Assembly: GCA_965116535.1 (NCBI GenBank)
Contig: OZ220703.1
Coordinates: forward strand, 1,037,287 to 1,101,286
Direction: 5' to 3'
Length of the DNA: 64,000 nt
From: Acidimicrobiales bacterium
GTDB lineage: Bacteria > Actinomycetota > Acidimicrobiia > Acidimicrobiales > Bin134
Of the stretch, positions 46,642-64,000 are shown in pieces. A model generated the notes under the pieces. It worked only from the letters and a program-made list of their open reading frames with translations, had not been told where the DNA came from and searched no databases. Position numbers and translations under genes: made by a program. Within the stretch, counting starts at the first letter, position 1, and every line of letters starts with the position of its first letter.

Positions 46642-46865
46642 GGTGCGGATCGCTCCATCCGCTCGCCAGCTGCCAATGCATCCTGCTCATTCAAGCGCTC
46701 ACCGGATGCCTTGGCAGCATCGGCCACCAGTTGCTGCGCAAAGGTCACAGTCGACTGAGCCTTATGGCGACGAAGTTGGTCGGCGACCCAGCTCGAAAAG
46801 GGAACGCCGAGGCTGTCGATGACCGGAACGACATCATCCGGCAAGCTGATCGTCTTGTTGGGCAT
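46635..46865 (-). CDS. Putative antitoxin of the MazF-like toxin
   Basis: 76 aa from the ATG at 46865 (MPNKTISLPDDVVPVIDSLGVPFSSWVADQL...). The ISLPDD start is typical of RHH/MazE-like antitoxins. Overlaps the toxin start by 7 nt. Confidence 0.55.
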   Translation of the reverse strand: MPNKTISLPDDVVPVIDSLGVPFSSWVADQLRRHKAQSTVTFAQQLVADAAKASGERLNEQDALAAGERMERSAPW

Positions 46866-46925
46866 GTACGTATTATACGTATGCACACAGGGACGGCAAC
46901 ACCCAACTTTGGTGGGAAATGAACT

Positions 46926-46960
46926 GGGGGCCACCCTGCTCAGTCGCGATGGTGGCCCCC
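46926..46960 (-). terminator. Stem-loop downstream of groEL (candidate intrinsic terminator)
   Basis: GGGGGCCACC-N15-GGTGGCCCCC forms a perfect 10-bp GC-rich stem starting 28 nt after the groEL stop. The U-tract on the minus strand is weak. Confidence 0.5.
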
Positions 46961-46987
46961 AAGTAGAAAGTCAGCGGATGCTGGCAG

Positions 46988-48939
<1,952 letters not shown>

Positions 48940-48969
48940 CTTGGCCTCCAAGGGGTTGATATTTGAGCG

Positions 48970-48996
48970 TTAGCACTCTCGATAGGCGAGTGCTAA
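48970..48996. promoter_or_regulatory. CIRCE operator (HrcA binding site) upstream of groES
   Basis: Perfect TTAGCACTC-N9-GAGTGCTAA read at 48970-48996, 31 nt upstream of the groES start. Confidence 0.9.
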
Positions 48997-49090
48997 GCGT
49001 AGGTCGTGGACGGAGTTGAGGCCAATTCAGACTTGGGGTTCGCCGGACGCTAAGCCTCAGTCAATTCACAAGCTGACCGCAACCTGACCG

Positions 49091-50119
49091 CTAGATGAAG
49101 GGGAGGGGAAGGTTGGGGTCGGCGCCCACTTCGAGGGATGAGGGGCCGTCGAGCTGAAGTCGCTGCCAGCCGGCGGCGGCCACCATGGCCGCGTTGTCGG
49201 TACACATGGAACGGCTGGGCAGGAATCCGCTGATGCCCGCGGCCACGCAGGCGTCGAGCAGGCGCTCCCGCAATGAGGAGTTGGCCGCCACCCCTCCGGC
49301 CAGGCACAGGCCCTTGGCTCTGTACTCTTCGGCGGCCTTTCGGGCTTTGTGAACCAACACATCCACCACCGCCTCTTGGAAGGAGGCTGCGATGTCGGCC
49401 ACGTCATGGTCGGGGTGGTTGCGCACATGGTTGACCACCGCAGTCTTGAGGCCGCTGAAAGAGAAGTTGTAGCCGACGTCGTACATGGGGCGGGGGAAAG
49501 CCACCGCTTCGGAGTTGCCGCTCATGGCCAAACGGTCGATCACCGGGCCACCGGGGTAGCCCAAGTCCATGAAGCGGGCCACCTTGTCGAACGCCTCCCC
49601 AGCGGCATCATCCACGGTCTGGCCGATAAGCCGGTAGCGTCCGAATGCCTCCATCAACACCAGCAGGGTGTGGCCACCGGACACCAACAGCACCACTACT
49701 GGCAGTTCCAAATCAGGTTCTTCCAGAAACGATGAGTACAGATGGGCCTCGAGGTGGTTGACGGCCACAAACGGGATGTCCCAAACCAAAGCCAGCGACT
49801 TGGCTGCGCTCACTCCCACCAACAGCGAGCCAATGAGGCCGGGGCCGGCGGTGGCGGCCACCGCCTCCACGTCGTGGTCGCTGAGGCCGGCCTCGACTAC
49901 CGCTTGGGCGACCACTGGGGTGAGCAGCTCCACATGGGCTCGGCTGGCGATCTCCGGAACCACACCGCCGTAGCGGGCGTGCAGATCTACCTGGCTGCTG
50001 ATCACCGACGACATAACGTCGGATGGGCCGGAAACCACGGCGGCGGCGGTCTCATCACAGGACGTCTCGATGCCCAAAACGATGGCGGGGGTTTCCGGAC
50101 GGGAATCCAGGGCAGTCAT
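49091..50119 (-). CDS. tsaD: tRNA N6-adenosine threonylcarbamoyltransferase
   Basis: VLGIETSCDETAAAVV, the HLEAHLYS metal motif, and GGVAAN. Overlaps the rimI stop (ATGA). Confidence 0.92.
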   Translation of the reverse strand: MTALDSRPETPAIVLGIETSCDETAAAVVSGPSDVMSSVISSQVDLHARYGGVVPEIASRAHVELLTPVVAQAVVEAGLSDHDVEAVAATAGPGLIGSLLVGVSAAKSLALVWDIPFVAVNHLEAHLYSSFLEEPDLELPVVVLLVSGGHTLLVLMEAFGRYRLIGQTVDDAAGEAFDKVARFMDLGYPGGPVIDRLAMSGNSEAVAFPRPMYDVGYNFSFSGLKTAVVNHVRNHPDHDVADIAASFQEAVVDVLVHKARKAAEEYRAKGLCLAGGVAANSSLRERLLDACVAAGISGFLPSRSMCTDNAAMVAAAGWQRLQLDGPSSLEVGADPNLPLPFI

Positions 50120-50652
50120 GCTCGGTCCAGTTCTACCGCGATCTTTACGAGGCGAGCGGCATAGTCGGGCTGATGGATGTTGTCGGCCTGCATCACCACT
50201 GCATCGGGCGACAATCCCATATTGGCGTAGTAGCCCCGGCGAATGCCCACCGGGGCCAGGCCGAAGCGCCGATAGAGGGATTGGGCGGATGGATTGTCGG
50301 CGGCCACTTCAAGGGCCAGGCTCGTGTTGCGGCGTCGGGCGGCCAATGCAAGGGCCAAGAACAGCCGGGCGCCGATGCCTTGGCCCCGGCAATCGGGAGC
50401 CACCGTCACGGTGGTGATGTGGGCGTTCTTTTTCTCGAAGGCCACCCCGCCATGGCCGACGACTCGTCTGGGTCTGAAGCTCTTGTCATTGGGATTGCCG
50501 ACGACTCGATCGTGGTTGGCCACCACATAGAAACGATCATCGGTGCGGGCCAGTTCCGACTCATAAACCTCGCGGGACCAGGGGATCGGATAGCACAGGG
50601 CGTCGATAGCCATGACCTCGCCGAGGTGAGCTCTTTTCATGGGCTCGATCAT
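50116..50652 (-). CDS. rimI: Ribosomal-protein-alanine N-acetyltransferase (GNAT)
   Basis: GNAT core with the RGQGIGARL acetyl-CoA motif. The ATG at 50652 forms an ATGA overlap with the tsaB stop. Confidence 0.8.
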   Translation of the reverse strand: MIEPMKRAHLGEVMAIDALCYPIPWSREVYESELARTDDRFYVVANHDRVVGNPNDKSFRPRRVVGHGGVAFEKKNAHITTVTVAPDCRGQGIGARLFLALALAARRRNTSLALEVAADNPSAQSLYRRFGLAPVGIRRGYYANMGLSPDAVVMQADNIHQPDYAARLVKIAVELDRA

Positions 50653-51338
50653 CGGGTGTTCCAGTTGATGTCGGCGTCGGGGACCCGAAGGTATATCGGC
50701 TTGAGCTCCCACGGCTTGACAAATTCCTCCCGCAGAGCCCGGGCGTGTGCCAATTGCACCAACGAGGCAGCGGAGGGGTGGGCCAAGTCTTGTTCAGCGA
50801 TTTCGGTTTTCTGGAGTCGGTCGAACACCTCCGCGTAGCGCCGGGCCCCGTCGCCCACCAGCAGTACCTCGTCGCTGGTGGCGAGCAACTCGGAGGCCAG
50901 ATCGTCGGGAGTGCCCACCTGAGCCTCGGAAACGCGCTGGATTCCGCCGGGCACTTGACGGTAGAAGGCATAGAACAGCTCACTGCGCCGGGCGTCGATG
51001 GCGGCCACGATCAACCGGTTGGTGTGGCGCACCGCGAAGGCCAGCAGATCGAGGCTGGACACCCCGATCATGGGTACCCCGAGGGCATAGGCCACCGCCA
51101 TGGCGCTAGAAATACCCACCCGCAGGCCGGTGTACAGGCCGGGTCCGAGATCCACAGCCACGCAACCCACATCTTTCAGCTCGATCCGGGCCTGGCGGGT
51201 CACAAACTGGATTTGGGGGGCGATGGACTCGGCATGACGGCGCCCTCGGGCGCTGTGGGCCGAAGCCAGCACCCCCTCGTGCCCGCCAAGGGCGCAACCC
51301 ACTTGCTGCGTGGCCGACTCGATGCCCAAGATCAACAT
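50649..51338 (-). CDS. tsaB: tRNA threonylcarbamoyladenosine biosynthesis protein TsaB
   Basis: MLILGIESATQQVGCAL..., GPGLYTGLRVGIS. The ATG at 51338 is preferred over the TTG at 51356. Confidence 0.85.
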   Translation of the reverse strand: MLILGIESATQQVGCALGGHEGVLASAHSARGRRHAESIAPQIQFVTRQARIELKDVGCVAVDLGPGLYTGLRVGISSAMAVAYALGVPMIGVSSLDLLAFAVRHTNRLIVAAIDARRSELFYAFYRQVPGGIQRVSEAQVGTPDDLASELLATSDEVLLVGDGARRYAEVFDRLQKTEIAEQDLAHPSAASLVQLAHARALREEFVKPWELKPIYLRVPDADINWNTR

Positions 51339-51835
51339 GTTGAGTCGTCCATCCAATGGGCCACCGCGGTGCCCACTGCCTGGGTCCGGTCTTGCCAGCT
51401 AGGTCCAACCGGGGTGAGCGCTATCACCCGCTCGTCTGGAGCGGTGTCAAGGGTGTCGACGAAAGTTAGAGCAACTTCGAGGTAGTTGTTGGGTAGGGCT
51501 TGGCGGATGGCGTCGCCCCACTCAATAAGGATGACTCCATCGCTGTCGAGCAGCTCAGGCAGGCCCAAATCGAGTACCTCGGCGATCTGGTCGAGGCGGA
51601 AGACGTCGAGGTGATGGAGCAGCAACCGCCCGTGGTATTCGCGGGCCAGAGTAAAGGTGGGGCTGGTCACCGGCTCGCCAATGCCCAAGGCGGCGGCGAA
51701 TCCCTGGGCGAAAGTGGTCTTGCCAGCGCCCAAGTCGCCCACCAGCAGTATCAGGTCACCGGGTTGGACCAATTCGACCAGGCTGGCGGCCAGGTTCTTC
51801 GTGTCCTCAGGTGATCGAGTGCGGGCTCGGATCAT
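51332..51835 (-). CDS. tsaE: tRNA threonylcarbamoyladenosine biosynthesis ATPase TsaE
   Basis: Walker A GDLGAGKTTFAQG, SPTFTL and HLDVFRL motifs. Confidence 0.85.
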   Translation of the reverse strand: MIRARTRSPEDTKNLAASLVELVQPGDLILLVGDLGAGKTTFAQGFAAALGIGEPVTSPTFTLAREYHGRLLLHHLDVFRLDQIAEVLDLGLPELLDSDGVILIEWGDAIRQALPNNYLEVALTFVDTLDTAPDERVIALTPVGPSWQDRTQAVGTAVAHWMDDSTC

Positions 51836-52404
51836 TCGGAAATCGCCATGCGGGCTCGGACCAGATCAGAGCGCATCTGGGCTTCTTGGAGGCCACCCCC
51901 TCGCAACACCGCGGCCGGGTGGTAGGTGGGGATAATGACCGCGCCAGAGCTGTCCATGCCCTCCATCGGGTAGCTCTGGCCGCGCAGCTTGGTGATCCCG
52001 GTTTTTGTGTCCAGCAGCAGCTTGGAGGAGAAGTTGCCCAATGTCACCACCACCCTTGGGGCGATGAGCTCGACTTGTTGCTCCAGCCAAGGGCGGCAGG
52101 CAGCAATCTCGTCGGGTTTGGGATCTCGATTGTCGGGAGGGCGGCACTTGACCACGTTGGCTATATAGCACTGATCGCGGGTAAGCCCGATCTCCTCTGC
52201 CATCAGCCGGTCGAGCAGCTTGCCTGAACGGCCCACAAAAGGAAGGCCCTGCTTGTCTTCTTCAGCGCCGGGTCCCTCGCCCACGAACATGAGGTCGGCG
52301 GTGGGGTTGCCCATGCCAAATACCACCTGGGTCCGGCCTTCGGCCAGGCCGCACTTGGTGCAGTCCGCCGCTTCGGCGGCGACCTCGGCCAACGTCAACG
52401 TCAC
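51832..52404 (-). CDS. Uracil-DNA glycosylase, family 4
   Basis: [32 protein letters not shown] and the HPAAVLR motif; 4Fe-4S Cys ligands. Confidence 0.85.
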
Positions 52405-52425
52405 AGGCCAAGGATACGCCCCCTA

Positions 52426-53406
52426 TTGGTTGAGGAGAACCCTGGATTGAACCGCTTTGTCTCCTTCACTGTTGTGGGACGAGGGTCAATCGGTGCGGTA
52501 CCGTCGGCGGTGATGCTGGGAGTTGGCGGGGGCGTGCTGGTGGGGCACTGGACCGATGAGGCGGCCTGCACAGGATGCACGGTGGTGGTGTTTCCCGAAG
52601 GGACCACAGCTTCGGGAGAGATTCGGGGAGGCGCTCCGGCCACCCGGGATTTTGCCTTGCTGGCACCCGAGCGGACGGTGGGCCAGGTGGACGCAGTGGT
52701 GCTTTCTGGAGGCTCGGCCTTTGGGCTGGCGGCAGCCGACGGGGTGATGCGGTGGTGCGAGGAGCAGGGGCGGGGATTCGAGACTCGAGGGGGCCGGGTG
52801 CCCATCGTGGTGGGTCTGTCGCTCTACGATCTGACCGAAGGCGATGGCCTGGTGCGCCCTGGCCCCGATGCCGGCTACTCCGCCGCCGACGCGGCCAGCG
52901 ATGACCTCCCAACGCTGGGGCGGGTGGGGGCCGGCGCAGGGGCCACCGTGAACAAGTGGCGGGGCGCAAACAACCGCGAGCCTGGCGGGCTGGGCGGTGC
53001 TCTGCTCCAAGTAGACGATGTGGTGGTGGGGGCGCTGGTGGCGCTGAACGCGGCCGGAGAAATCAACGACGGTGCCGTGCAACAGGCGCTGGTCGACGGT
53101 ACCTACGAGCACCAGCCTGCTGATCCGTTTGGCGACGAGGGCGATCCTCAAGCGCCTGCAAACACCACCATCGGGGTGGTGGTGACAAATGCGAAGCTCG
53201 ACAAGCTGGGGTGCTTCCGGTTGGCCCGCAGCGGTCACGCCGGTATGGCCCGGGCGCTATTGCCGGTACACACTGACGGCGACGGTGATGCGTTGGTTGT
53301 GGGGGCAACCGGCCAGGTGGAGGCTGATTTTGGGCTGGTTCGGTTGATGGCCGCGGCCGCCGTGGAGGCATCCATCCGCTCGGTGCGCCAAGATGAAGGC
53401 GAATAA
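52426..53406 (+). CDS. P1 (S58/DmpA) family peptidase
   Basis: [23 protein letters not shown]...[16 protein letters not shown]...SGGSAFGL. Start uncertain (TTG 52426 or GTG 52474). Confidence 0.78.
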
Positions 53407-53427
53407 CACAGCCAATGGGAGGTTGAG

Positions 53428-54291
53428 ATGAGGGACTTGTCCGGCAAGGTGGCGGTGATCACCGGGGCGGCCAGTGGCATGGGGCGGGCCATGGTGCGCA
53501 AAGCGGCCTCTGAGGGGATGCACGTTCTGGCGGGCGACATCGACGAGGCCGGGCTGGCCGAGACCGTGGGCGGCTTGGAGAATGCCCAGCTAATGCTGAC
53601 CGACGTGACCAGTCCCGACGCCAACGAGGCCCTGGCCAACGCCGCCTTGGAGCGCTTCGGCGGAATCCACTTGGTGCACCTCAATGCCGGGGTGCTCACC
53701 GGCGGGTTCACTTGGGAGAACACGGTGGACGACTGGCGCTGGGTGCTGGACGTGAACCTGTGGGGCGTGATTAACGGCGTGCGCAGCTTCATTCCCCGGA
53801 TGTTGGAGAAAGGCGAAGAAGGCCACGTGGTGATCACCGCCTCAGTTGGTGGGCTCACCTCTGGCGGCCTGCTCGGCCCCTACTCCACCTCAAAGTACGG
53901 GGCGGTGGCCATTGCCGAGTCGCTCCATCGGGAACTGGACATGATCGGAGCGCCGATCGGAGTGTCTTGCCTGTGCCCCGGTCCGGTGGCCACCGGCATA
54001 TTCCGGGCTGAGCGCAACCGCCCCGACACTTATGACGACACCTGCGGTCCCATGTCGGCCGACGCAGAAGCCGCGGCTTTCCACCGAGGCTTGATCAATG
54101 CCATTGATGAGGGAACCGACCCAGCGGAGATTCCTGAGCTGGTCTTCGAATCGGTGAAGGACGACAGGTTCTGGATTTTCCCCCACCCCGATTTCAAGGA
54201 GAGGATCGCGGCCCGCACCGAGTCGATCATGAACGAGACCAATCCTGAGTACACGGTGGGATTGCCAGGCGCGGTAATGCCATCTCGTTAG
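53428..54291 (+). CDS. SDR family oxidoreductase
   Basis: GKVAVITGAASGMGRAM, NAGV, YSTSKYG (YxxxK). Confidence 0.85.
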   Translation: MRDLSGKVAVITGAASGMGRAMVRKAASEGMHVLAGDIDEAGLAETVGGLENAQLMLTDVTSPDANEALANAALERFGGIHLVHLNAGVLTGGFTWENTVDDWRWVLDVNLWGVINGVRSFIPRMLEKGEEGHVVITASVGGLTSGGLLGPYSTSKYGAVAIAESLHRELDMIGAPIGVSCLCPGPVATGIFRAERNRPDTYDDTCGPMSADAEAAAFHRGLINAIDEGTDPAEIPELVFESVKDDRFWIFPHPDFKERIAARTESIMNETNPEYTVGLPGAVMPSR

Positions 54292-55401
54292 TTACATAAA
54301 GCGCAGGGGCACTCGGCGGCCGAGGTGGCAGACGATTTCGTAGGCGACGGTGTCGAGTCGCTCGGCGATCTCGGCGGCGGTGATTTCCTCGTTGCCTTGT
54401 CGCCCCAGGAGGACCACCTCGTCGCCGGGTGACACGGGGTGGTCGAGACCGCAGTCCACCATGGTCTGGTCCATGGTCACCACCCCGGCGATGGGGCATC
54501 GACGGCCGCCGATCAGCACCTCGCCTCCACTCACGCCGAGGCGGCGGGTCCAGCCGTCGGCATAGCCGATGGGGATGGTGGCCAACTGGGTGTCGGCTGG
54601 GGCGGTGTAATGGTGGCCGTACGACACTGGAGTGCCCGCGGTGATGGTTTTCACCATGGCCACCTCGGTGCGCAAGGTCATTGCCGGCTGAAGCGGTAGG
54701 CAGTTGGCCAATGCCGGCGATGGGGGAATGCCATAGATGGCGATCCCACAGCGCACCATGTCGAATCGACCCGCGGGATGCGCCATGGCCACCGCCGAGT
54801 TGGCCAGGTGGCGACAGAAGTCGTGGTGGCCAACAAGCCGCAGCCGCGACAGCAGATGGTTGTACTGCTCAATCTGATAGGCGGTGAACGGGTTGTCGGG
54901 CTCGTCGGCCACGGCGCAGTGGGTCCACACCCCGGCCAGTTCCAAGGTGTCGCGCTCGTCGATGGCGTCAGCCAGTTTCATGACCTCAGTGGACGGTGCG
55001 CCGACTCGGGCCATGCCGGTGTCGACTTTGAGGTGGACGGCCAGGCGCTCGTTGGCGGCGGCCGCGGCCGCGGCCGCGGCCGCCAGACCCTCCCCTTGGT
55101 ACACGGTGGGAGTGAGCCCCAACTCGACAACCTCGGTGAATTCGTTGGGCCGGGGCTCCGACAGCAGGAGAATGGGGCTGCTGATCCCGGCCTCTCGCAG
55201 TTGGCGGCCCTCGTCCACCAGGGCCACGGCCAGGGTGCTTGCGCCCGCGTCCACTGCGGTTCGGGCCACCGGGACCATGCCGTGTCCGTAGGCATCGGCC
55301 TTGACCACCGCACAAAGCTCGACGGGATCCACGAGATCGGCCAAGAGCCTCACGTTGTGGGCGATGGCCGAAAGGTTGATGTCGGCCCAGGTTGGCCTCA
55401 T
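54292..55401 (-). CDS. alr: Alanine racemase
   Basis: MRPTWADINLSAIAHNVR, AVVKADAYGHG (PLP lysine). The ATG at 55401 forms an ATGA overlap with the nnr stop. Contains a run of about 10 Ala encoded by a (GCSGCC)n repeat at about 55054-55084. Confidence 0.9.
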   Translation of the reverse strand: MRPTWADINLSAIAHNVRLLADLVDPVELCAVVKADAYGHGMVPVARTAVDAGASTLAVALVDEGRQLREAGISSPILLLSEPRPNEFTEVVELGLTPTVYQGEGLAAAAAAAAAANERLAVHLKVDTGMARVGAPSTEVMKLADAIDERDTLELAGVWTHCAVADEPDNPFTAYQIEQYNHLLSRLRLVGHHDFCRHLANSAVAMAHPAGRFDMVRCGIAIYGIPPSPALANCLPLQPAMTLRTEVAMVKTITAGTPVSYGHHYTAPADTQLATIPIGYADGWTRRLGVSGGEVLIGGRRCPIAGVVTMDQTMVDCGLDHPVSPGDEVVLLGRQGNEEITAAEIAERLDTVAYEIVCHLGRRVPLRFM

Positions 55402-56810
55402 GTCACCACTCTCTGGGCGACGGTGGCTTCCCATACTTGGGGCAAGACAGAGAGCAGATCGGACGCCTTCGTCGGGGCCAGTGGACAGGCGGTGCCGGCC
55501 CGGCCGTGAAGCCAGGCGGCAGCGGCGGTGGCGTGCATGGGTTCGGCATCGGTACTGAGCAGGCCGCAGATGAGTCCGGCCAGTACGTCGCCGGTGCCAG
55601 CGGTGGCCAGCCGGGCGTCACCGCTGGTTACGGCCAGTGCGTCGCCGCCGGGATGGGCCACCACGGTGGTGGGGCCCTTGAGCAAGACGAGCGCGCCGGT
55701 GGCTGCGGCCAGCGAGCGGGCGGCGGCGAATCGGTCGGCATTGGGAGCCTTCCCGGTGAGCATGCGGTACTCCCCGTCGTGGGGGGTGAGCACGGTTGGG
55801 GCGGTGCGATGGGCTAGCAGTCCAGGCGCATCGGGACCCAGGGCGCTGAGGCCGTCACCGTCCACTACCAGGGGAAGCTGAACCTTGGCGGCGAGATCGC
55901 GCACTGCTTTGACGGTGTTGGGTTGTCGGCCCAATCCGGGCCCGACCAGCACCGACTTGAAGCGGGCCAGTTCGTCGCCATCGACCATCGAAGCCCAATC
56001 ATCAGAGGGTAGGGGGAAGCCGACGGCTTCGGTGGGCGCGGCTGAGCCAGCCAGAAGGTTGGCAGCATCGAGGCCTGGGGTGCTCAACCGCACATAGCCT
56101 GATCCGCCTCGAATTGCGGCGGAGGCGGCCAGATGGGCAGCCCCGGTCATGCCTGGCGACCCCGCGATGACCCAGCAGGCGGTCTTCCACTTGTGGGCCA
56201 CCACGGGCCGCACCGGCAGCCAACGGCTCACGTCGTCGGCGGTAACCAAATGGGTTCGGGCCCCAGAGCTATCAAGGCCGATGGAGGCAACCGTGATCTG
56301 TCCGCAGTGCTGGGCGCCGGGGTGGAGCACCAGTCCGGGTTTGAGCGCGCCGAAGGTGACTGTCTGATCGGCCATCCAGGCGTGGCCGGGGATCTCACCG
56401 GTCAACCCGTTTACCCCCGAGGGGATGTCGGCGGCCAGGATCGGTGCAGCCTGGCCGGGATCGTCGAGCGCGGGAGCTGGCAAGGGTGGGGAATAGGGTC
56501 GACGCAGTCCGGTGCCGTAGGCCGCGTCTATGGCCAGGTGGGCTGGTGGCAGCGAGTCGGGGGGTTCGGCGGCATCGATTACGGCTACCCGCACGCCTCG
56601 GCGCCGCAGCCGCTGGGCGGCGGCCCGTCCGTCGGCACCGTTGTTGCCCTTTCCAGCCAGCACCGTCACCCGCCGCCCGTAGCTTCCCCCCAGCATGCTG
56701 AGCGCGGCTCGGGCCAGCGCGGCCCCGGCCCGCTCGATCAACTCCTCGACAGGCTCAGGAGCGGCGGCGTCGATGGCGGCCATCTCAGCCGGGGTGACGA
56801 TGGGGGTCAT
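55398..56810 (-). CDS. nnr: Bifunctional NAD(P)H-hydrate repair enzyme (epimerase / ADP-dependent dehydratase)
   Basis: N-terminal YjeF_N (VLAGKGNNGADG) and a C-terminal carbohydrate-kinase-like dehydratase domain (GPGLG, GTGDVLAG). Confidence 0.88.
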   Translation of the reverse strand: MTPIVTPAEMAAIDAAAPEPVEELIERAGAALARAALSMLGGSYGRRVTVLAGKGNNGADGRAAAQRLRRRGVRVAVIDAAEPPDSLPPAHLAIDAAYGTGLRRPYSPPLPAPALDDPGQAAPILAADIPSGVNGLTGEIPGHAWMADQTVTFGALKPGLVLHPGAQHCGQITVASIGLDSSGARTHLVTADDVSRWLPVRPVVAHKWKTACWVIAGSPGMTGAAHLAASAAIRGGSGYVRLSTPGLDAANLLAGSAAPTEAVGFPLPSDDWASMVDGDELARFKSVLVGPGLGRQPNTVKAVRDLAAKVQLPLVVDGDGLSALGPDAPGLLAHRTAPTVLTPHDGEYRMLTGKAPNADRFAAARSLAAATGALVLLKGPTTVVAHPGGDALAVTSGDARLATAGTGDVLAGLICGLLSTDAEPMHATAAAAWLHGRAGTACPLAPTKASDLLSVLPQVWEATVAQRVVT

Positions 56811-56835
56811 CTCTAAGGCGTATCCGAACACTGGC

Positions 56836-57423
56836 CTATGGACGCCAGCGTTCGGCCAGATCGGTCAATGACTCCAGCAAGAGGTCTTCGGTGCTGATGT
56901 CACTCAGTCGATCGAGGCGGAAATCGGGCTCGGTTTCGGTGACCTCGTCGCGCAGGGCGGCAAACCGATTCCGGTAGCCCTCCAACACCTGCTGAGCCTT
57001 CTCCGGCGACAGGTGTGGTCGGAATCGCACATGCAAGAGGGTGAGTCCAGTGGTCTGGCGGTCTTTGACCTCGGGGATCAGCACGATGGTCCGGCCGTCG
57101 GAGCGTCCTCGAACTGCTTGAACCTGTCGTTCGATGGCCACCAAGTGCTTGCTGCCCCGCAGGGTGGGATCGCGTTCGGTGCGAGAGGCCAATCCCACAG
57201 TGATGCCACCCCGGTCGATCACATGGATGGTGGTGCTGGGCGATTCCGGGTCGCCGTTGATGCCGTAGCGGATGTAACCGGTGACTTCGGCAATCGCGGG
57301 GTCGAGTGCAGTCAGCGTGCGCAGGGTTTGGTAGCTCAGCTGATGGCGGGGGGCACCGGCGTCGAGGGCGGCTCGGACCAGCGGCAGTTCCAACAACGAC
57401 TCCTCGGCCCGTGAAATCCCCAC
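56836..57423 (-). CDS. Hypothetical 195 aa ORF, possibly the C-terminal continuation of the GlmS-like protein
   Basis: Protein-like composition and no recognised family. Its frame stays open upstream of the GTG at 57423 and there encodes ADPVDAIRHQAKTVTV, the GlmS C-tail motif. Confidence 0.4.
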   Translation of the reverse strand: MGISRAEESLLELPLVRAALDAGAPRHQLSYQTLRTLTALDPAIAEVTGYIRYGINGDPESPSTTIHVIDRGGITVGLASRTERDPTLRGSKHLVAIERQVQAVRGRSDGRTIVLIPEVKDRQTTGLTLLHVRFRPHLSPEKAQQVLEGYRNRFAALRDEVTETEPDFRLDRLSDISTEDLLLESLTDLAERWRP

Positions 57424-60308
57424 CGTGACGGTCTTGGCCTGGTGGCGGATGGCGTCAACCGGGTCAGCTCGCCCACCGCCACGGTGAGCATGGCGGTGAG
57501 GTCTTCCAACACAACCGCGGGAGTGCCCACTCGTCCCCGCTCCAGTTGGTAGGCATCGAGCGGAGCGATGCCCAGGGCATAGCGGTACATGGAGGCCATC
57601 TCAGCAGCGGTGCCGGCTTCTAGGCACCCGTTGTAGCGGCCTTGGCGCAAATCTTGGAAGAACTGCTGGGCCGAAGGAGTGAACTGAGAGCGGAGCTTTT
57701 CCAGCAAGCGCTGGCTGTCGAGGCCGGCGTTGCTGTCAGCGGCGCTGGCGGCTACTTCGGATTCAATGGCCGCCCGGGTCTCCCGCAGGGGCTGGGCCAG
57801 CTCGTCAATGGCCAGCGCCGCCTCGTAGCTGAACAGGTGGCCCACCATGGTGGCCAGCACGAAGGCCAGTTCAGGGGAGGCGGTGGTTGGGGTGGAGATC
57901 ACCTCCGCGGCAGCGTCGAATCGGGCCCCAGTTCCGCTGGTGATCACTATGGGCGCGGCCTTATGGGCTCGGAAGATGGCCACCTCTTTGGCCACGTCGT
58001 GGGCGGTGGAGTCGAGCAGCCCGGCGGCGCACACCAGAATCATCGGTTCTGAGGACAGATCGATGTGCTTTTTGTCTTCGGTGGTGTCGCAGGCGATGGA
58101 CTTGTAGCACAGCTCGGAGAGCTTGATCCGCACCTCTTCGGCCGCCACTCGATTGAGCCCATTGCCCACCACGGCCCAATAGGTTCGACCGAGGGCGTGG
58201 CGGCGGACGATGTCGGCAATGCGGCTGTGAAAGCCCAGCACTTCGACCATCGCCTCGGGAAGGTCGCTCAACGACGTGAGCAGTTGCTGGCGCCGCTCGT
58301 ACTGCCGGGAATCGGCTGGCTGGTTGCCGTTGGCCGCGTCGGCCAGGGCCACGGCCAACAGCATCCCCGCGGCCACTTGGGAGTAGAACGCCTTGGTGGA
58401 GGCCACGCTCATCTCCACGTCTCGGCCGTCAGAGGTGTACATCACCCCGTCGGCCTTGTCGCAGAGGTCGCTGTTGCGCCGGTTGACCACGGCGATGACC
58501 GCGGCACCCCGGCGCCGAACGAGATCCACGGTTCGATTGGTGTCGGTGGTGGTGCCCGATTGGCTGATGGCAATGACCAGGGTGTCGCTCATGTCGGTCT
58601 GCAAGCCGAACCCCGACAACTCGGTAGCCAAAATCGAGCTGACGTGGCGGTCGGGCAACTCATGGCGCAAGAAGTGGGCCAGGCTGTGGGCCGCCACCGC
58701 GGCGGTGCCCTGGCCGATGACGATGAAATTGCCGATCTGGCCGGTGGCCAGCCGCTGCGCCAAGGAGTCGGGCAGGGTTTCGGGTCCCAACTCCACTGCC
58801 AATCTCGGGCTGGGCTGGTTCTCCTCAGTGCTGACGATTCGACCCCGCAGAGTCTTTCGGAACGACTCGGGCGACTCGGTGATCTCCTTGAGCAGGAAGT
58901 GGGGGAATCCTCGGCGGTCGACATCGCGGGTGGTGATCTCGGCGTCCACGATGTCGGCGTCATTCACCGGCAGCGGCGTACCGTCATAGGAGAAGCGCTG
59001 GACGGCAGTGAGATCGCCGGCGTAGTCGCGGTTCAAGACAGCCACTTGGCCCCGGCTGGCGTCCGCGTTCTGAGAATCGGACGGGGTTTCGCCGTCCATG
59101 CGCAGGTAGCGGCTGGATTGCTCCACGAGGCCGTAGGGCTCGCTGGCCACCACGTAGGCATCCTCGGCCGTGCCGATGTAGAGGGCCTGGCCGCTGCCCC
59201 GCAAGGCCAAGAGCAGTTGGCCGGGATGCGCCGCGGTCTGTCCGACGATGGCCACCGAGCCGTTGAGGTCGGCCACTGTGCGGCGAAACGCGTCGATTGG
59301 GTTGGCCGAGTCGGGCAACCGAACAGACCAGAGGGAGGGGATGACCTTGGCGTCGGTGGTGATGCCGGGGTGTAGGTCTAAGTCGTGGTCGGCCACAAGA
59401 TCGGTGTGGTTGTCGACGTCGCCGTTAAGCGCGGCGATGGTGTAGGGCCGGGAAGGGCCCTCCGCCAGTTCGGAGTTGAGGGGGTGGGCATTGGCCTCGT
59501 TGATCATGCCCACGCTGGCCCAACGGGTGTGCCCGACAACCACCGCAGAGACCTCCTCGGCATCCACCGCTGAGGCCAGTAGTTCATCGGCCGTGATGGC
59601 GGACCGCAGTGCGGCGGTATTGTCACCCAATTCGCCTATTTCCGCAGCGGCCTTGTAGACGAAGCTCAAGCTGTTGTCGGCCCAGCGCACCGAGCCGGTC
59701 CGGAATAGGGGATCGGCGGCCCGCTCGGCCACTGCGGCGGCTATCGCCGGATCGGCAGGATCGAGGGCGTGACCGCTGACCATCACGTGGAGACCGGCGG
59801 AGTCCCGGCCCCGCACTTCCAGGCGATCGAGCGCCGACAGAGCGATCTGCACCGAGCTGAAGGCCGAAAGGGCTCCCATACTGGCATTGGGTCCAGCCAA
59901 CTCGGCAACGGCGTCGGCTGTGTTGAGCCGATCATTCCCGATGGCCCACACCGCGTCCTTCATCTGAACCAGAGCGGCATTCACCGCTTCGGTGGCCCGA
60001 TCGCTCCCCGACCGGTCGAGGTCGGCTTCCAAGGTGCTGATGAGTCGATTGATCTCGCTCAGCGTGGCTCCGATGGTGGCCCGTAGCGGCTTCTCGCTGA
60101 GCAGCGCCTGAAGGCCGGCGGTGCCCTGAAGCAAGCGGTCGGCTTGAGCCAGGTTGGAGGCTGCCGCCCCGATACCCCCGGCAAGATCGCCGGTTCCGCT
60201 CAGGTCGCGCAAAGCCACGACCACCGGGCTCAAAAGGTCGAGGACCTCGGCCGAGGTCGGAGGAACACGCCGAGACCAGCGCCGGACCACCGCGACAATG
60301 CCGCACAT
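57336..60308 (-). CDS. Atypical long glutamine--fructose-6-phosphate aminotransferase-like protein (Ntn glutaminase + 2 SIS modules + two large insertions)
   Basis: The start MCGIVAVV at 60308 (Cys right after Met) is 28 nt after glmM. Motifs present: LEVRGRDSAGL, HTRWASVG, NGDVDNH, TDAKVIP, FLLKEITESP, SQSGTTTDT, VASTKAF. About 990 aa versus about 610-620 aa for canonical GlmS. The last roughly 40 residues of this frame are Arg/Pro/Trp-rich and overlap the next ORF by 88 nt. Confidence 0.7.
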   Translation of the reverse strand: MCGIVAVVRRWSRRVPPTSAEVLDLLSPVVVALRDLSGTGDLAGGIGAAASNLAQADRLLQGTAGLQALLSEKPLRATIGATLSEINRLISTLEADLDRSGSDRATEAVNAALVQMKDAVWAIGNDRLNTADAVAELAGPNASMGALSAFSSVQIALSALDRLEVRGRDSAGLHVMVSGHALDPADPAIAAAVAERAADPLFRTGSVRWADNSLSFVYKAAAEIGELGDNTAALRSAITADELLASAVDAEEVSAVVVGHTRWASVGMINEANAHPLNSELAEGPSRPYTIAALNGDVDNHTDLVADHDLDLHPGITTDAKVIPSLWSVRLPDSANPIDAFRRTVADLNGSVAIVGQTAAHPGQLLLALRGSGQALYIGTAEDAYVVASEPYGLVEQSSRYLRMDGETPSDSQNADASRGQVAVLNRDYAGDLTAVQRFSYDGTPLPVNDADIVDAEITTRDVDRRGFPHFLLKEITESPESFRKTLRGRIVSTEENQPSPRLAVELGPETLPDSLAQRLATGQIGNFIVIGQGTAAVAAHSLAHFLRHELPDRHVSSILATELSGFGLQTDMSDTLVIAISQSGTTTDTNRTVDLVRRRGAAVIAVVNRRNSDLCDKADGVMYTSDGRDVEMSVASTKAFYSQVAAGMLLAVALADAANGNQPADSRQYERRQQLLTSLSDLPEAMVEVLGFHSRIADIVRRHALGRTYWAVVGNGLNRVAAEEVRIKLSELCYKSIACDTTEDKKHIDLSSEPMILVCAAGLLDSTAHDVAKEVAIFRAHKAAPIVITSGTGARFDAAAEVISTPTTASPELAFVLATMVGHLFSYEAALAIDELAQPLRETRAAIESEVAASAADSNAGLDSQRLLEKLRSQFTPSAQQFFQDLRQGRYNGCLEAGTAAEMASMYRYALGIAPLDAYQLERGRVGTPAVVLEDLTAMLTVAVGELTRLTPSATRPRPSRWGFHGPRSRCWNCRWSEPPSTPVPPAIS

Positions 60309-60336
60309 CTCGCCCAAGGTTAGTGGTGTGTCGCCG

Positions 60337-61647
60337 CTATTGGTTGATCGCCGTGGCGACGTCGGTGGCGACGGTGTTGGCGATTTCTGGGGTTTCGGCT
60401 TCGACCATGATGCGGAGGAGGGGTTCGGTGCCGGAAGGGCGGACCAGAATTCGGCCGTTCGAACCCAGCTTTTCTTCGGCGGCGGAGACTGCGGCCGCCA
60501 GGCAGGCTTCGTCAATGGAGTGGGGATCGATGGCCACGTTGTGGAGTACTTGGGGCATCTTGGTCATGGCCTCGCGGGCCAGGTCGCGCAGCGGCAGACC
60601 TCTGCTGGCAACCACCTCGAGAAGCTGCAACGAGGTCACCAGACCGTCGCCGGTGGTGGCCAGGGAGGGGAAGATCACGTGGCCCGATTGCTCGCCGCCC
60701 AGCGCCCAGTTCCCTTCCTGAAGCACAGCTTGCACATGGCGGTCGCCCACCGGCGTGGTCACCACATTGATGCCCCGCTGGGCCATCGCCCGATGGAAGC
60801 CCAGGTTGGCCATCACGGTCACCACCACGGTGTTGCCCGGTAGCCGACCATGTTGAAGGCGGTCGACGGCGCAGATGGCGATGATCTGATCGCCGTCCAC
60901 CAATTCGCCGGTGTGGTCTACGGCCAATACCCGGTCAGCGTCCCCGTCGAAGGTGAGTCCCAGATCGGCCTCGTTCTTTCGGACTGCATTGGCCACTGTT
61001 TCGGGACGAGTAGAGCCACACCGGTGGTTGATGTTGCGGCCGTCGGGAGACGAGTTGATCACGGTGACGGTGACACCGTGGGCTTCAAGCGGGCCGGGCA
61101 AGGCGGCGGTGGCCGAGCCGTGAGCCGCGTCCACCACCACGTGGAGGCCGCTGCCGTTGAATTCAGCCGTGCTGGCCACCGCATCCAGATACTGCCGCAG
61201 CATCTCCGATCCATCAGAGGTTCGTGGAGGGGTGCCGAGCGTGGAAACTGTGGTGCGCCCGGGGTCGGCCAGCGCCGCCTCTAGGGACGCTTGGACCTCG
61301 TCGTCGAGCTTTCGGCCTTCGGGGCCGAACAACTTGATGCCGTTGTCGTACCACGGATTGTGCGACGCCGAGACGACTGCCCCCGGGGCTCGGGTTTGTG
61401 CCGCGCCCCACGCCACCGCGGGGGTTGGGGCCACCCCCAGGTCAAGGGTGGAGACCCCGACCGCGCTGAAGCCAGTGGCCAACGCGGCTGCGAATTCAGG
61501 ACTGGAATCTCGGGTGTCGCGTCCGATGACAACCGGGGCGGTTGGGGCAATCACCTCAGCTGCCGCTTGGGCCAGTCGGACGACGTCTTCAGGCAGGAGC
61601 TCTTGGTAGGCTCGGCCTCGAACTCCGTCAGTTCCAAAGCGAAGCAC
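60337..61647 (-). CDS. glmM: Phosphoglucosamine mutase
   Basis: FGTDGVRG, the active-site SASHNPWYDNGIK, and DGDADR. Confidence 0.92.
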   Translation of the reverse strand: MLRFGTDGVRGRAYQELLPEDVVRLAQAAAEVIAPTAPVVIGRDTRDSSPEFAAALATGFSAVGVSTLDLGVAPTPAVAWGAAQTRAPGAVVSASHNPWYDNGIKLFGPEGRKLDDEVQASLEAALADPGRTTVSTLGTPPRTSDGSEMLRQYLDAVASTAEFNGSGLHVVVDAAHGSATAALPGPLEAHGVTVTVINSSPDGRNINHRCGSTRPETVANAVRKNEADLGLTFDGDADRVLAVDHTGELVDGDQIIAICAVDRLQHGRLPGNTVVVTVMANLGFHRAMAQRGINVVTTPVGDRHVQAVLQEGNWALGGEQSGHVIFPSLATTGDGLVTSLQLLEVVASRGLPLRDLAREAMTKMPQVLHNVAIDPHSIDEACLAAAVSAAEEKLGSNGRILVRPSGTEPLLRIMVEAETPEIANTVATDVATAINQ

Positions 61648-61657
61648 TGAGCTGTTG

Positions 61658-62050
61658 CTAGCGCTTGGAGTACTGAGGCGCCTTGCGGGCTTTCTTCAAG
61701 CCGTACTTCTTGGATTCCTTCTTGCGGTCGTCGCGGGTTAGGAACCCCTCCTGCTTTAGAACTTCCCTCATCTCAGGGTCTAGCGCCACCAGCGCCCGGG
61801 TGATGCCCAGTCGCAGAGCTCCGGCCTGGCCGTTGGCTCCGCCTCCATGCATGTTCACGTCGATGTCGTACATCTCGGCGGTGTTGGTGACCTGGAGGGG
61901 GGCCATAAACGCCATCCGGTGGCTCCGGGAGGGGAAGTAGTCCTCAGCTTGGCGACCGTTCACGGTCACCTGCCCGGTGCCGGGGCGAAGCCGGACGCGG
62001 GCGACCGCTCGTTTGCGGCGTCCAGTGGCCTGGGTAAGAGGGGCAGACAT
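61658..62050 (-). CDS. rpsI: 30S ribosomal protein S9
   Basis: 130 aa ending ...[12 protein letters not shown]; [12 protein letters not shown]. Confidence 0.95.
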
Positions 62051-62508
62051 CAGGAGTCTCCGGTCTTGGATCGGGCCCCGGCGATCTCCAGAGGCTGGGG
62101 CTGCTGGGCTTCATGGGGATGGGCCGGTCCGGCGTAAACCTTGAGCTTGCGCAGCATCTGGCGACCTAGACGGTTCTTGGGGAGCATTCCTCGCACTGTT
62201 CGGCGAACGGCCTCAGCGGGCTGGGTCTCCAGCAGATGCCCGTAGCTGGTCTGGCGCAAACCGCCGGGATAGCCGGAGTGGCGATACACCTGCTTGTCAG
62301 TGGTCTTGCTGCCGGTGAGCACCACCTTGTCGGCGTTCACGATGATCACGTGGTCGCCGGTGTCGAGGTGGGGAGTGAAACCGGGCTTGTGCTTGCCCCG
62401 CAGCACGCTGGCCACCTCGGTGGCCATCCGACCGAGGATTAGCCCTTCGGCATCCACGACGTGCCACGCGCGTTCGATGTCTTTGATTTTCGGCGTGTAG
62501 GTGGGCAT
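62050..62508 (-). CDS. rplM: 50S ribosomal protein L13
   Basis: [33 protein letters not shown]... Stop/start overlap TGATG with rpsI. Confidence 0.95.
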
Positions 62509-62601
62509 CGGCTTTCCTTCGGACGCGATCCCGGGAAAGGCAATGATACGGCCCCAGTTGGGGAAGTGACAACTGCCCCAGCAGGTGTGGCGCCCAATGA
62601 C

Positions 62602-63351
62602 TTAGGTATAGGACACCGACCACAGACAAAGGCCGTGGGGTGGGGCCAGATTGCCGGCGGCAGAGCGATCTCGGGCGGCCAGGATGGCAGCCATCGCCTC
62701 GGGAGGGCGTCGGCCGGCGCCGATTTCCACCAGGGCGCCGGTGATGGAGCGAACCATCTGGTGACAGAAGGAGGAGGCCTCGATCTCGAAGCACAGCAAA
62801 TCTTGATCAGCTGGTTGCCAGCCGGCTCGGTACACGACGCGCACCCGGGATTTCTCCGTTCCGTCAGCGGTGTGCTGTCGGCGGCAAAACGAGGAGAAGT
62901 CGTGTTCACCCACTACCGCGGCGGCGGCCGTGTTCATTTGATCGACGGCTAGTGGTCGAGGATGGTGCCAAGTCGTAGCAGCCAAGAATGGATCAGGCAC
63001 CTCCCGATTCAGAATCGTGTAACGGTAGGTGCGACTTGTGGCATCGAATCGGGCATCGAAGCCATCGGGAGCGGCCTCCAGGGCACGAACCACGATGGCG
63101 GGAGCCAACATGCGGTTAACCGCATTGCGGACGCGGAGAAGGTCGGCATCATCAGGGACGTTGAAGCTCACTATCTGACCCCACGCATGGACACCGGTGT
63201 CAGTTCGGCCCGCGCACGTCAGATCGACTGACTGGCGCAAGCACCGGGTTAGGGCGTCGGCGAGGTCGCCGCCGATGGTGCGGACCCCTTCATTGATGGC
63301 GAACCCGTGGAACGACCCGCCGTCGTAGGCGACGGTCGCTCGAACCCGCAC
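62602..63351 (-). CDS. truA: tRNA pseudouridine(38-40) synthase
   Basis: MRVRATVAYDGGSFHGF, AGRTDTGVHAWGQ (catalytic Asp). Confidence 0.9.
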   Translation of the reverse strand: MRVRATVAYDGGSFHGFAINEGVRTIGGDLADALTRCLRQSVDLTCAGRTDTGVHAWGQIVSFNVPDDADLLRVRNAVNRMLAPAIVVRALEAAPDGFDARFDATSRTYRYTILNREVPDPFLAATTWHHPRPLAVDQMNTAAAAVVGEHDFSSFCRRQHTADGTEKSRVRVVYRAGWQPADQDLLCFEIEASSFCHQMVRSITGALVEIGAGRRPPEAMAAILAARDRSAAGNLAPPHGLCLWSVSYT

Positions 63352-63366
63352 GACCGCTCGGTGTGA

Positions 63367-63720
63367 CTAGACCAGCTCGATGCGGGCCATGGGGGCGTTG
63401 TCGCCGTAGCGGGGTCCAAGCTTGAGAATGCGGGTGTAGCCGCCCGGTCGATTGGCATAGCGGGGGCCGATGTCCACCATGAGCTTGTCGGTGATCTCCG
63501 GGTCTCCCAGGTGGGCCAGGATCTGGCGGTGATTGTGCTGTCCGCCCTTCTTGGCTTTGGTGATGAGCTTCTCAGCTACCGGGCGCATGGCCTTGGCTTT
63601 GGCTTCGGTTGTGGTAATGGCCTCTGCCGCGATCAGAGAGGCGACCAAGTTGGCCATCATCAGCTTCTGGTGTTGCGAGCTGCCGCCGAAGCGGCGCCCC
63701 TTTCGTGGTCGTCCGGGCAT
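63367..63720 (-). CDS. rplQ: 50S ribosomal protein L17
   Basis: From the ATG at 63720: [29 protein letters not shown]...[25 protein letters not shown]. Confidence 0.93.
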
Positions 63721-63733
63721 GGTTGTCTTCGTT

Positions 63734-64000
63734 CTACGAGCGGGGACCGGCGAGGGTGAGGCCTCGCTCGTCCAATTTCTCGTTGACCTCGTCCAGCGAC
63801 TTCTGACCGAAGTTGGTGATGGCCAGCAACTCGTCCTCGGTGCGGGCCAACAACTCACCGATCATGTTGATCTGGGCTCGCTTCAGGCAGTTGCGGGGCC
63901 GTTCGGAGAGCTCCAGGTCTTCTATGGGCAAGTCCAGGTCGGGGGCGCCGGCGAGAGCACTGCCCGCTTCCGCCATGCTCAGCCCCTGGGGCTCGTCGCT
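63734..64000 (-). CDS. rpoA: DNA-directed RNA polymerase alpha subunit, C-terminal part (5' end outside the window)
   Basis: The alpha-CTD sequence [51 protein letters not shown]. The frame stays open to the window edge. Confidence 0.88.

Follow-up and report, generated by a model that had tools for sequence, protein, structure and literature searches.

A double-length GlmS-family amidotransferase of Acidimicrobiia, interrupted by a four-nucleotide deletion in one assembly

We report that two adjacent open reading frames in an Acidimicrobiales genome, analysed here within a stretch of 64,000 nt (hereafter the window), are very probably a single gene at the glmS slot, encoding a 1158-aa long-form protein of the GlmS family, and that they appear separate only through a 4-nt deletion specific to this assembly. 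GlmS catalyses the committed step to UDP-GlcNAc and is a textbook model for ammonia channelling and for unusual regulation. A version of double size appears to be in use across the whole class Acidimicrobiia, with relatives in Desulfobacterota and Planctomycetota. Its three unannotated modules wrap the catalytic C-tail, and the long form constitutes an uncharacterised GlmS variant.

The interrupted gene lies on the minus strand at 56836..60308 and spans 3473 nt here, against 3477 nt with the stop codon when intact. Homologue alignment places its start at an ATG followed by TGC (60303..60308, minus strand), a Met whose removal exposes Cys as the Ntn-hydrolase nucleophile, and M1-C2-G3-I4 is invariant in 31 homologues. 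As given in the preliminary description, the minus-strand frame beginning MCGIVAVV at 60308 encodes 990 aa and ends at a stop codon at 57336-57338, while the tail VDAIRHQAKTVTV is read from 57459-57421 in the -1 frame relative to it; the -1 frame meets no stop before the one at 56836-56838 and takes in a 195-aa ORF (56836..57423). A TTG-started 1059-aa extension (to 60515) was rejected as spurious, as it overlaps glmM and every homologue starts with Met-Cys. Directly upstream is glmM (phosphoglucosamine mutase; 60337..61647, minus), which would use the presumed product GlcN-6-P, and directly downstream is nnr (YjeF_N plus carbohydrate kinase; 55398..56831, minus), followed by alr (54292-55434).

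The split into 990 and 195 aa stems from a 4-nt deletion at 57460..57463 (minus) that shifts the frame by -1. The deleted bases lie between CCG microrepeats and can be written as CCGA, CGAC, GACC or ACCG; because of this CCG..CCG microrepeat the exact junction is ambiguous within 57460-57463. When the window was aligned with a second assembly of the same population (L088), all 17,165 of 17,165 aligned bases were equal, and the sole difference in 17,165 nt was that L088 carries four more bases (CCGA) at 57460-57463, an insertion that restores a single 1158-codon ORF (P0271). The gene is likewise intact, at 1158 codons, in L001 (P0001), which is 97.9% identical to the window, and the deletion is the only net indel between these two in 13 kb. 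At the junction intact relatives have GACCCGACCGGTT and the window has GACCCGGTT; within 57440-57480 the undeleted form reads CCGACCGG. The out-of-frame read-through at 57336..57461 (minus; RLTPSATRPRPSRWGF...AIS, then stop) is a non-native product of the deletion and occurred in no homologue compared. The 1-nt indel first suggested, as a sequencing error or fresh mutation, was the right kind of explanation for this copy, although the lesion is 4 nt in size, and the native fusion of about 1190 aa with a novel C-terminal domain, proposed as another possibility, proved correct as to a single polypeptide with such a domain but not as to its length, the repaired product having 1158 aa.

Throughout the family the native product is one continuous chain, the homologues measuring about 1135-1280 aa. 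The C-tail and C-terminal module occur together in at least 595 species genomes, mostly of Acidimicrobiia; nearly all whole-gene loci hold one ORF of about 1150 codons, open from Met-Cys to the end, and the best 120 homologues are nearly all 1132-1317 aa long, with 57-99% identity. The usual gene order is rplM-rpsI-glmM-X-nnr-alr, X being the long gene. In the Acidimicrobiia loci the long gene is flanked by glmM on its upstream side and by nnr-alr on its downstream side, both immediately adjacent, and glmM adjoins it in 66 of 81 loci, contigs ending early being counted. The family is also found in Desulfosarcina, Syntrophales and Planctomycetota, there without an adjacent glmM, and in these groups the long form may exist as a paralogue alongside an ordinary glmS. 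Two distant members (P0244 and P0188) sit on short contigs whose gene context is uninformative. The locus had been described as an unusual variant; its insertions are real, yet they are not peculiar to it, and since many orthologues (none of them characterised) share them, the architecture is lineage-typical. A search for literature on the long-form protein found nothing relevant.

The protein consists of a GlmS core and three family-specific modules. The core comprises a class-II glutamine amidotransferase region (residues 153-460; 58929..59852, minus; Pfam GATase_6) and an isomerase domain of two SIS subdomains (residues 461-837; 57798..58928, minus; Pfam SIS). PDB sequence matches, fold matches and the alignment of catalytic residues agree with the initial view of a GlmS-like core with its motifs retained, and the long form resembles bacterial GlmS in its Cys1 Ntn glutaminase domain, double-SIS isomerase domain, catalytic residues and linkage to glmM. 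Bacterial GlmS is the glutamine--fructose-6-phosphate transaminase EC 2.6.1.16 (TIGR01135), with 1JXA and 2J6H as E. coli structures. In a profile alignment to E. coli GlmS the glutaminase residues R26, R73, W74, H86, N98, G99 and D123 are kept and the motifs RLEVRGRDSAG, HTRWAS, LNGDVDN and ITTDAK fall at the corresponding positions, with Ser and Val at the Q-loop positions T76 and H77. Of the isomerase residues, T302, S347, Q348, S349, T352, S401, K485, E488 and H504 are kept, and the motifs SQSGTTTDT, VASTKAF, IKLSE and KKH align; the exceptions are the phosphate-binding S303, replaced by Ala, and E351, replaced by Thr. The best PDB sequence matches were GlmS and GFAT, with the SIS-only deaminase 8EOL also matching via the shared SIS domain, and Foldseek gave a TM of 0.61 to whole GFAT1/GlmS and of 0.83-0.85 to the GlmS/GFAT isomerase domains.

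The GlmS C-tail, VDAIRHQAKTVTVG, is internal here (57418..57459, minus) and contains K960 (numbered on the intact protein), which corresponds to Lys603 in E. coli. Long-form and bacterial tails share the motif VDxxRxxAK[ST]VTV; among 31 homologues ELTRP[VI]DA[IV][KR]HQAKTVTVGISR is near-invariant and the Lys603 equivalent invariant. The early recognition of this segment as a GlmS tail was borne out in silico: once the 111-aa insertion preceding it was removed, the glmS profiles aligned to their last positions (ending at 606/607 and 600/601, versus 589 and 583 before) and gained 25-27 bits. A phmmer search of the PDB with the 37-aa tail region alone gave no match, the query being too short to be informative. 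In canonical GlmS this tail stands at the extreme C-terminus and closes the sugar site. In the long form its Lys is followed by about 200 further residues, and since the AF2 model has a pLDDT under 50 in the tail as well as in the catalytic loops, a position of the tail within the active site is a presumption.

Despite these conserved features the protein scored 207.6 and 226.6 bits against the NCBIfam glmS models TIGR01135 and NF001484 (cut-offs 418.05 and 381), about half the curated cut-off. Removing the modules in silico raised the scores to 232.5 and 253.6 bits, still below the cut-offs, which indicates that the core itself is very diverged; identity to solved GlmS/GFAT structures is about 20% in structural alignment. 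The NCBI name is only 'SIS domain-containing protein'.

If the long form acts as GlmS, glutamine would be hydrolysed by Cys1 and the ammonia would move to the SIS isomerase site, where Fru-6-P would be converted to GlcN-6-P with the aid of the E488, H504 and K603 equivalents, and the adjacent GlmM would carry GlcN-6-P on towards UDP-GlcNAc. It might instead be something other than the housekeeping enzyme, either a paralogous amidotransferase/isomerase for a different ketose phosphate or a GlmS-like protein with a regulatory function, in which case some other part of the genome would hold a canonical glmS. Scores so far under the curated cut-offs even without the modules, the changes at S303 and E351, and the occurrence of the family amid unrelated genes in Desulfosarcina and Planctomycetota speak for such a role. 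We nonetheless consider it unlikely, given the conserved adjacency to glmM in the slot of glmS in other Actinomycetota (as in the gene order of Mycobacterium and Streptomyces), the retention of almost every catalytic residue for the two half-reactions together with an invariant tail Lys, and the assignment of GlmS function by the JGI pipeline. Nor is there a second copy nearby: no other GlmS-like gene was found in the window or within about 6 kb of the long gene in any of the loci fetched (1.03 Mb in total). Characterising the long form would fill an annotation gap in the peptidoglycan precursor synthesis of Acidimicrobiia.

Unlike bacterial GlmS, the long form carries two helical insertions and has a further domain behind its tail. 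The first module is an all-helical insertion of 139 aa (residues 14-152; 59853..60269, minus) between strand beta1 and helix alpha1 of the glutaminase domain, modelled as helices 19-34, 42-60, 62-71, 73-99 and 106-138; every family member has it, at a length of 100-154 aa, and in distant full-length members its identity is 11-31%. The preliminary description had noticed it but put it at about 170 residues against some 15 in canonical GlmS, whereas the distance from the Cys to LEVRG is 160 residues versus 21 in E. coli GlmS and the net insertion is 139 aa. The second, which separates the last SIS helix from the C-tail, measures 111 aa (residues 838-948; 57465..57797, minus), matching the earlier estimate of about 110, and ranges from 91 to 129 aa across all family members. 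The third is a C-terminal alpha/beta domain of 193 aa (ISRAEE...ERWRP; 56839..57417, minus, with the stop at 56836-56838), modelled by AF2 with a pLDDT of 88 and known, among the homologues found, only from the C-terminus of the long-form family. Its invariant residues include R968, Y1016, R1044, K1055, D1072, R1074, H1094 and E1126. Pfam searches with the three modules at E up to 10 gave noise alone (Syntaxin_2, T4SS, DUF5037). Two related lineages, seen in 7 and 6 assemblies, stop 8-31 residues past TVTVGISR, where nnr follows directly and no DNA for a C-domain is present; this clean loss in sister lineages makes an accessory or regulatory role for the domain likely.

In the model the C-domain opens with an N-terminal helix and continues as a 2+3-stranded antiparallel sheet interspersed with helices. 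Its best fold matches all belong to the GAF/PAS/Cache sensor class, including the mycobacterial large glutamate dehydrogenase (7JSR), matched in its N-terminal regulatory region. These Foldseek matches are weak (best E 3.7e-3, TM no higher than 0.42, 10-20% identity) and no sequence family matched, so the GAF/PAS-like resemblance may serve as a lead rather than as evidence of family membership. For the protein as a whole the best PDB match, by sequence as well as by fold, is eukaryotic GFAT1/GFPT1 (e.g. 6R4E). GFAT1 is a GlmS enzyme with extra regulatory sequence, under feedback control at the protein level by UDP-GlcNAc and by phosphorylation. In GFAT, however, the insertion amounts to a short loop within the glutaminase domain and the tail forms the C-terminus, with neither helical bundles nor a sensor-like C-domain. 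The SIS-only GlcN-6-P deaminases (NagB-II/GlmD) have an SIS domain homologous to that of the long form (NF046059, 50.9 bits; 8EOL), but they are about 330 aa long without a glutaminase domain, and 50.9 bits is far under the cut-off of 430.

With the helical insertions and the sensor-like C-domain flanking the mobile C-tail, the modules probably serve regulation or oligomerisation rather than catalysis. It is conceivable, though we advance it tentatively, that the long form is a GlmS under allosteric control by its own extra parts, whose C-domain and helical bundles would bind a pathway metabolite and so gate the tail. The ligand could be GlcN-6-P or UDP-GlcNAc, and the invariant Arg, Lys, His and Tyr of the C-domain would form the predicted ligand site. 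In other bacteria GlmS is controlled through RNA (the glmS ribozyme, GlmY/GlmZ) or through a partner protein (GlmR). Were the allosteric reading true, it would replace these forms of control, and the long form could thus show a new protein-level control of GlmS.

As to the origin of the break, an error in the consensus or the assembly is the likeliest source of the deletion; failing that, it would be a very recent slippage variant within the population. A real deletion, arisen by recent replication slippage and fixed or segregating in the symbiont population, would make the gene a fresh pseudogene: the 990-aa product would lack the catalytic C-tail and presumably be inactive, and the C-domain ORF would be orphaned. 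Its position between CCG direct repeats is a classic slippage context, 4 nt is atypical for a sequencing error (these typically affect homopolymers), and by cluster look-up the deposited 3.7-Mb chromosome has the two halves called as separate genes (P0273 and P0272); related lineages manage without the C-domain, and amino-sugar salvage may be open to a host-associated organism. We think such a pseudogene improbable all the same, since the second assembly has the gene intact with zero SNPs over 17 kb, and since the break, unlike the natural absence of the C-domain in those relatives, takes away the invariant tail Lys. Selection does not seem relaxed either: codon differences between the window and L001 are 33 synonymous to 7 nonsynonymous, and conservation past the break is perfect, both differences 3' of it being silent in the tail frame. 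Moreover, about 5% of MAG copies are frame-broken at scattered sites, which suggests that assembly error is common. Neither junction form had a match in the JGI metagenome contigs scanned. The break is of interest only as a caution: 4 nt between two deposited assemblies of one population suffice to make an essential-looking gene seem a pseudogene.

Programmed -1 ribosomal frameshifting, put forward early on as a means of fusing both ORFs in translation and favoured only by the downstream frame being -1 and open, can be dismissed with near certainty, for ACC CGG TTG contains no slippery heptamer (X XXY YYZ), the zero-SNP sister assembly, the 98%-identical relative and all other relatives are simply in frame at this site, and the break is not conserved there: among 80 loci four more copies are broken, each at a different place.

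The locus represents a known enzyme in variant form, typical of its lineage but uncharacterised, and only the window's assembly shows the frame break. On the minus strand, the long ORF begins at an ATG-TGC start (MCGIVAVV) at 60308, runs for 990 codons and stops at 57336-57338, and PVDAIRHQAKTVTVGISR... is encoded in the -1 frame from 57462, which stays open until a stop at 56836-56838. Start, length, stop and -1-frame tail are all as the preliminary description gave them. A TTG-started version of 1059 aa (57336-60515), which adds 69 codons upstream and overlaps the end of glmM, was rejected as spurious because the Met-Cys start at 60308 is conserved in every homologue. The only Pfam domains recognised in the long ORF were GATase_6 and SIS; the 195-aa ORF in the -1 frame had none, in agreement with its earlier assignment to no recognised family.

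When the two ORFs were joined conceptually and the product used as a protein search query, thousands of proteins were returned. The best 120 were nearly all single polypeptides of 1132-1317 aa (57-99% identity), the exceptions being three shorter entries (P0039, P0046 and P0047), so the native fusion already suggested for this locus is what its homologues display. They are named 'SIS domain-containing protein' or GlmS at source, and those with organism names are mostly from Acidimicrobiia, including Ca. Poriferisocius. The protein of a close relative (P0001) is 99% identical and unbroken through ...GELTRPVDAIRHQAKTVTVGISR....

The JGI metagenome contig encoding this relative (L001) has the same gene order as the window and 97.9% identity to it over 13 kb. 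Its sequence at the break is GACCCGACCGGTT, against GACCCGGTT in the window: a 4-nt deletion in the latter between CCG microrepeats and the sole net indel in the alignment. By cluster look-up, the source genome's own calls for the split gene (P0273, 990 aa, and P0272, 185 aa) lie on a contig of 3,697,415 bp, and an intact protein of 1158 aa (P0271) shares every one of the window's amino-acid variants. The contig encoding the latter (L088; ENA ERZ25072196, 335 kb) matches window positions 46836-64000 with zero mismatches and differs only by four extra bases, CCGA; two assemblies of one population thus conflict at this single site. The indel invoked in the preliminary description is thus real as a difference between assemblies, but it measures four nucleotides, not one. 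Codon differences between the window gene and L001 (33 synonymous, 7 nonsynonymous) gave no sign of decay, and the two downstream of the break are both silent in the tail frame. Broken frames also occur in 4 of 80 related genome loci (L032, L040, L045 and L069), at four different positions and in three cases in long-read 'MFD' MAGs, which suggests that assembly indels are frequent in this GC-rich long gene. Given the disagreement with L088, the lack of decay and the scattered breaks elsewhere, an assembly or consensus error is quite probably the cause of the deletion; a slippage variant of very recent origin is possible. Programmed -1 frameshifting, the remaining earlier proposal, is excluded, as L088, identical to the window but for its CCGA, is in frame and the other loci break at different positions.

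Scanning species-representative genomes yielded at least 595 confirmed loci. The locus is therefore less peculiar than first described: its variant architecture stands, as yet uncharacterised, but it is typical of the lineage and the break belongs to one assembly. The great majority of the best 80 loci, which include Iamia, Microthrix and the cultured Aquihabitans sp. G128, carry the label Acidimicrobiia or an unresolved Actinomycetota rank; three records bear Planctomycetota or Acidobacteria MAG labels. The order rplM-rpsI-glmM-X-nnr-alr is conserved among these loci, and in Mycobacterium and Streptomyces glmS occupies the equivalent region. No second GlmS-like gene was found in the window or within about 6-8 kb either side of the gene at 90 loci (1.03 Mb in total). 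Within the neighbouring glmM, about 1 kb of the window (60600-61600) diverges from L001 by about 12-26% per 200-nt bin between flanks that are 99-100% identical; window and L088 are identical here, and the block has the appearance of a tract recombined between strains.

PDB sequence searches returned GlmS/GFAT matches only (E about 1e-19 for the sequence alone, 4e-36 for the family profile). Compared with the full-length AF2 model (pLDDT 81.7, pTM 0.72), GFAT1 and E. coli GlmS taken whole gave TM 0.61, and isomerase domains taken alone gave TM 0.83-0.85. In a profile alignment, E. coli catalytic residues fall on family-invariant residues: R26, R73, W74, H86, N98, G99 and D123 are kept in the glutaminase site, with T76 substituted by Ser and H77 by Val, and T302, S347, Q348, S349, T352, S401, K485, E488 and H504 in the isomerase site, with S303 substituted by Ala and E351 by Thr. 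AF2 confidence fell below 50 at residues 264-274, 735-761 and 958-971 of the intact protein, which are sequence-invariant catalytic loops (the equivalent of the Q-loop, and the loop of His504) and the C-tail, and whose equivalents are the mobile elements of known E. coli GlmS structures; the low confidence is consistent with substrate-dependent mobility. The native protein scored 207.6 bits against TIGR01135 (curated cut-off 418) and 226.6 bits against NF001484 (cut-off 381), the TIGR01135 alignment ending at profile position 589 of 607. With the three extra modules removed in silico, scores rose to 232.5 and 253.6 bits and alignments extended to positions 606/607 and 600/601, so that the tail does align as a GlmS tail, as had been proposed, at scores still far below cut-off. 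Judged by these NCBIfam scores, the core is far from canonical GlmS, and the sub-threshold values weaken the assignment. Residue conservation and synteny nonetheless make it probable that the long-form protein is the GlmS of Acidimicrobiia. Glutamine would be hydrolysed at Cys1, its ammonia passed to Fru-6-P in the SIS site, and the resulting GlcN-6-P handed to the neighbouring GlmM.

Of the extra modules, one is a helical insertion of 139 residues that separates beta1 from alpha1 in the glutaminase domain, another is a helical insertion of 111 residues placed after the last SIS helix and before the tail, and the third is a 193-aa C-terminal domain that follows the tail. None has a Pfam match, and we found no literature on long-form GlmS architecture. 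Modelled alone (pLDDT 88), the C-terminal domain shows a helix and, after it, a 2+3-stranded sheet; its only fold matches were weak ones (E at least 3.7e-3, TM at most 0.42), to sensor domains of the GAF, PAS and Cache types and to the regulatory region of mycobacterial large GDH. These modules may have a regulatory or scaffolding role towards the tail. In two sister clusters (76-78% identity to the window protein) the C-terminal domain has been cleanly lost, and the proteins stop 8-31 residues past TVTVGISR: P0046 (990 aa, 7 assemblies) and P0047 (967 or 942 aa, 6 assemblies). Their end points (L084-L087) differ, each form recurs across several independent assemblies, nnr begins directly after the stop, and tblastn detected no C-domain DNA downstream. 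Some lineages can therefore do without the C-terminal domain, which speaks for an accessory role. The window break, in contrast, also removes the tail Lys. At the same tail/C-domain junction, P0043 (L005, OZ220474.1) shows a further length change, an 11-aa tandem duplication (VTVGISRAEES-VTVGISRAEES).

Searched against 1.84 billion representative proteins, the tail plus C-terminal domain matched 524 clusters. Full-length matches were all 1070-1280 aa with the domain at the extreme C-terminus, and shorter ones look like fragments. Each distant full-length member examined had all three modules, the helical insertions being most divergent (11-31% identity), the C-terminal domain intermediate (28-50%) and the tail most conserved (70-100%). 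More distant members, 28-35% identical to the window's C-terminal domain, occur in Planctomycetota, Desulfosarcina ovata, Desulfosarcina widdelii and Syntrophales, among neighbours unrelated to the Acidimicrobiia gene order. The same architecture, of about 1200 aa, is also seen outside Actinomycetota, in a Planctomycetes MAG (L090) and in D. ovata (L089, AP021879), where PBP transpeptidase, aminotransferase and Fe-ADH genes lie upstream and CRISPR-Cas genes downstream.
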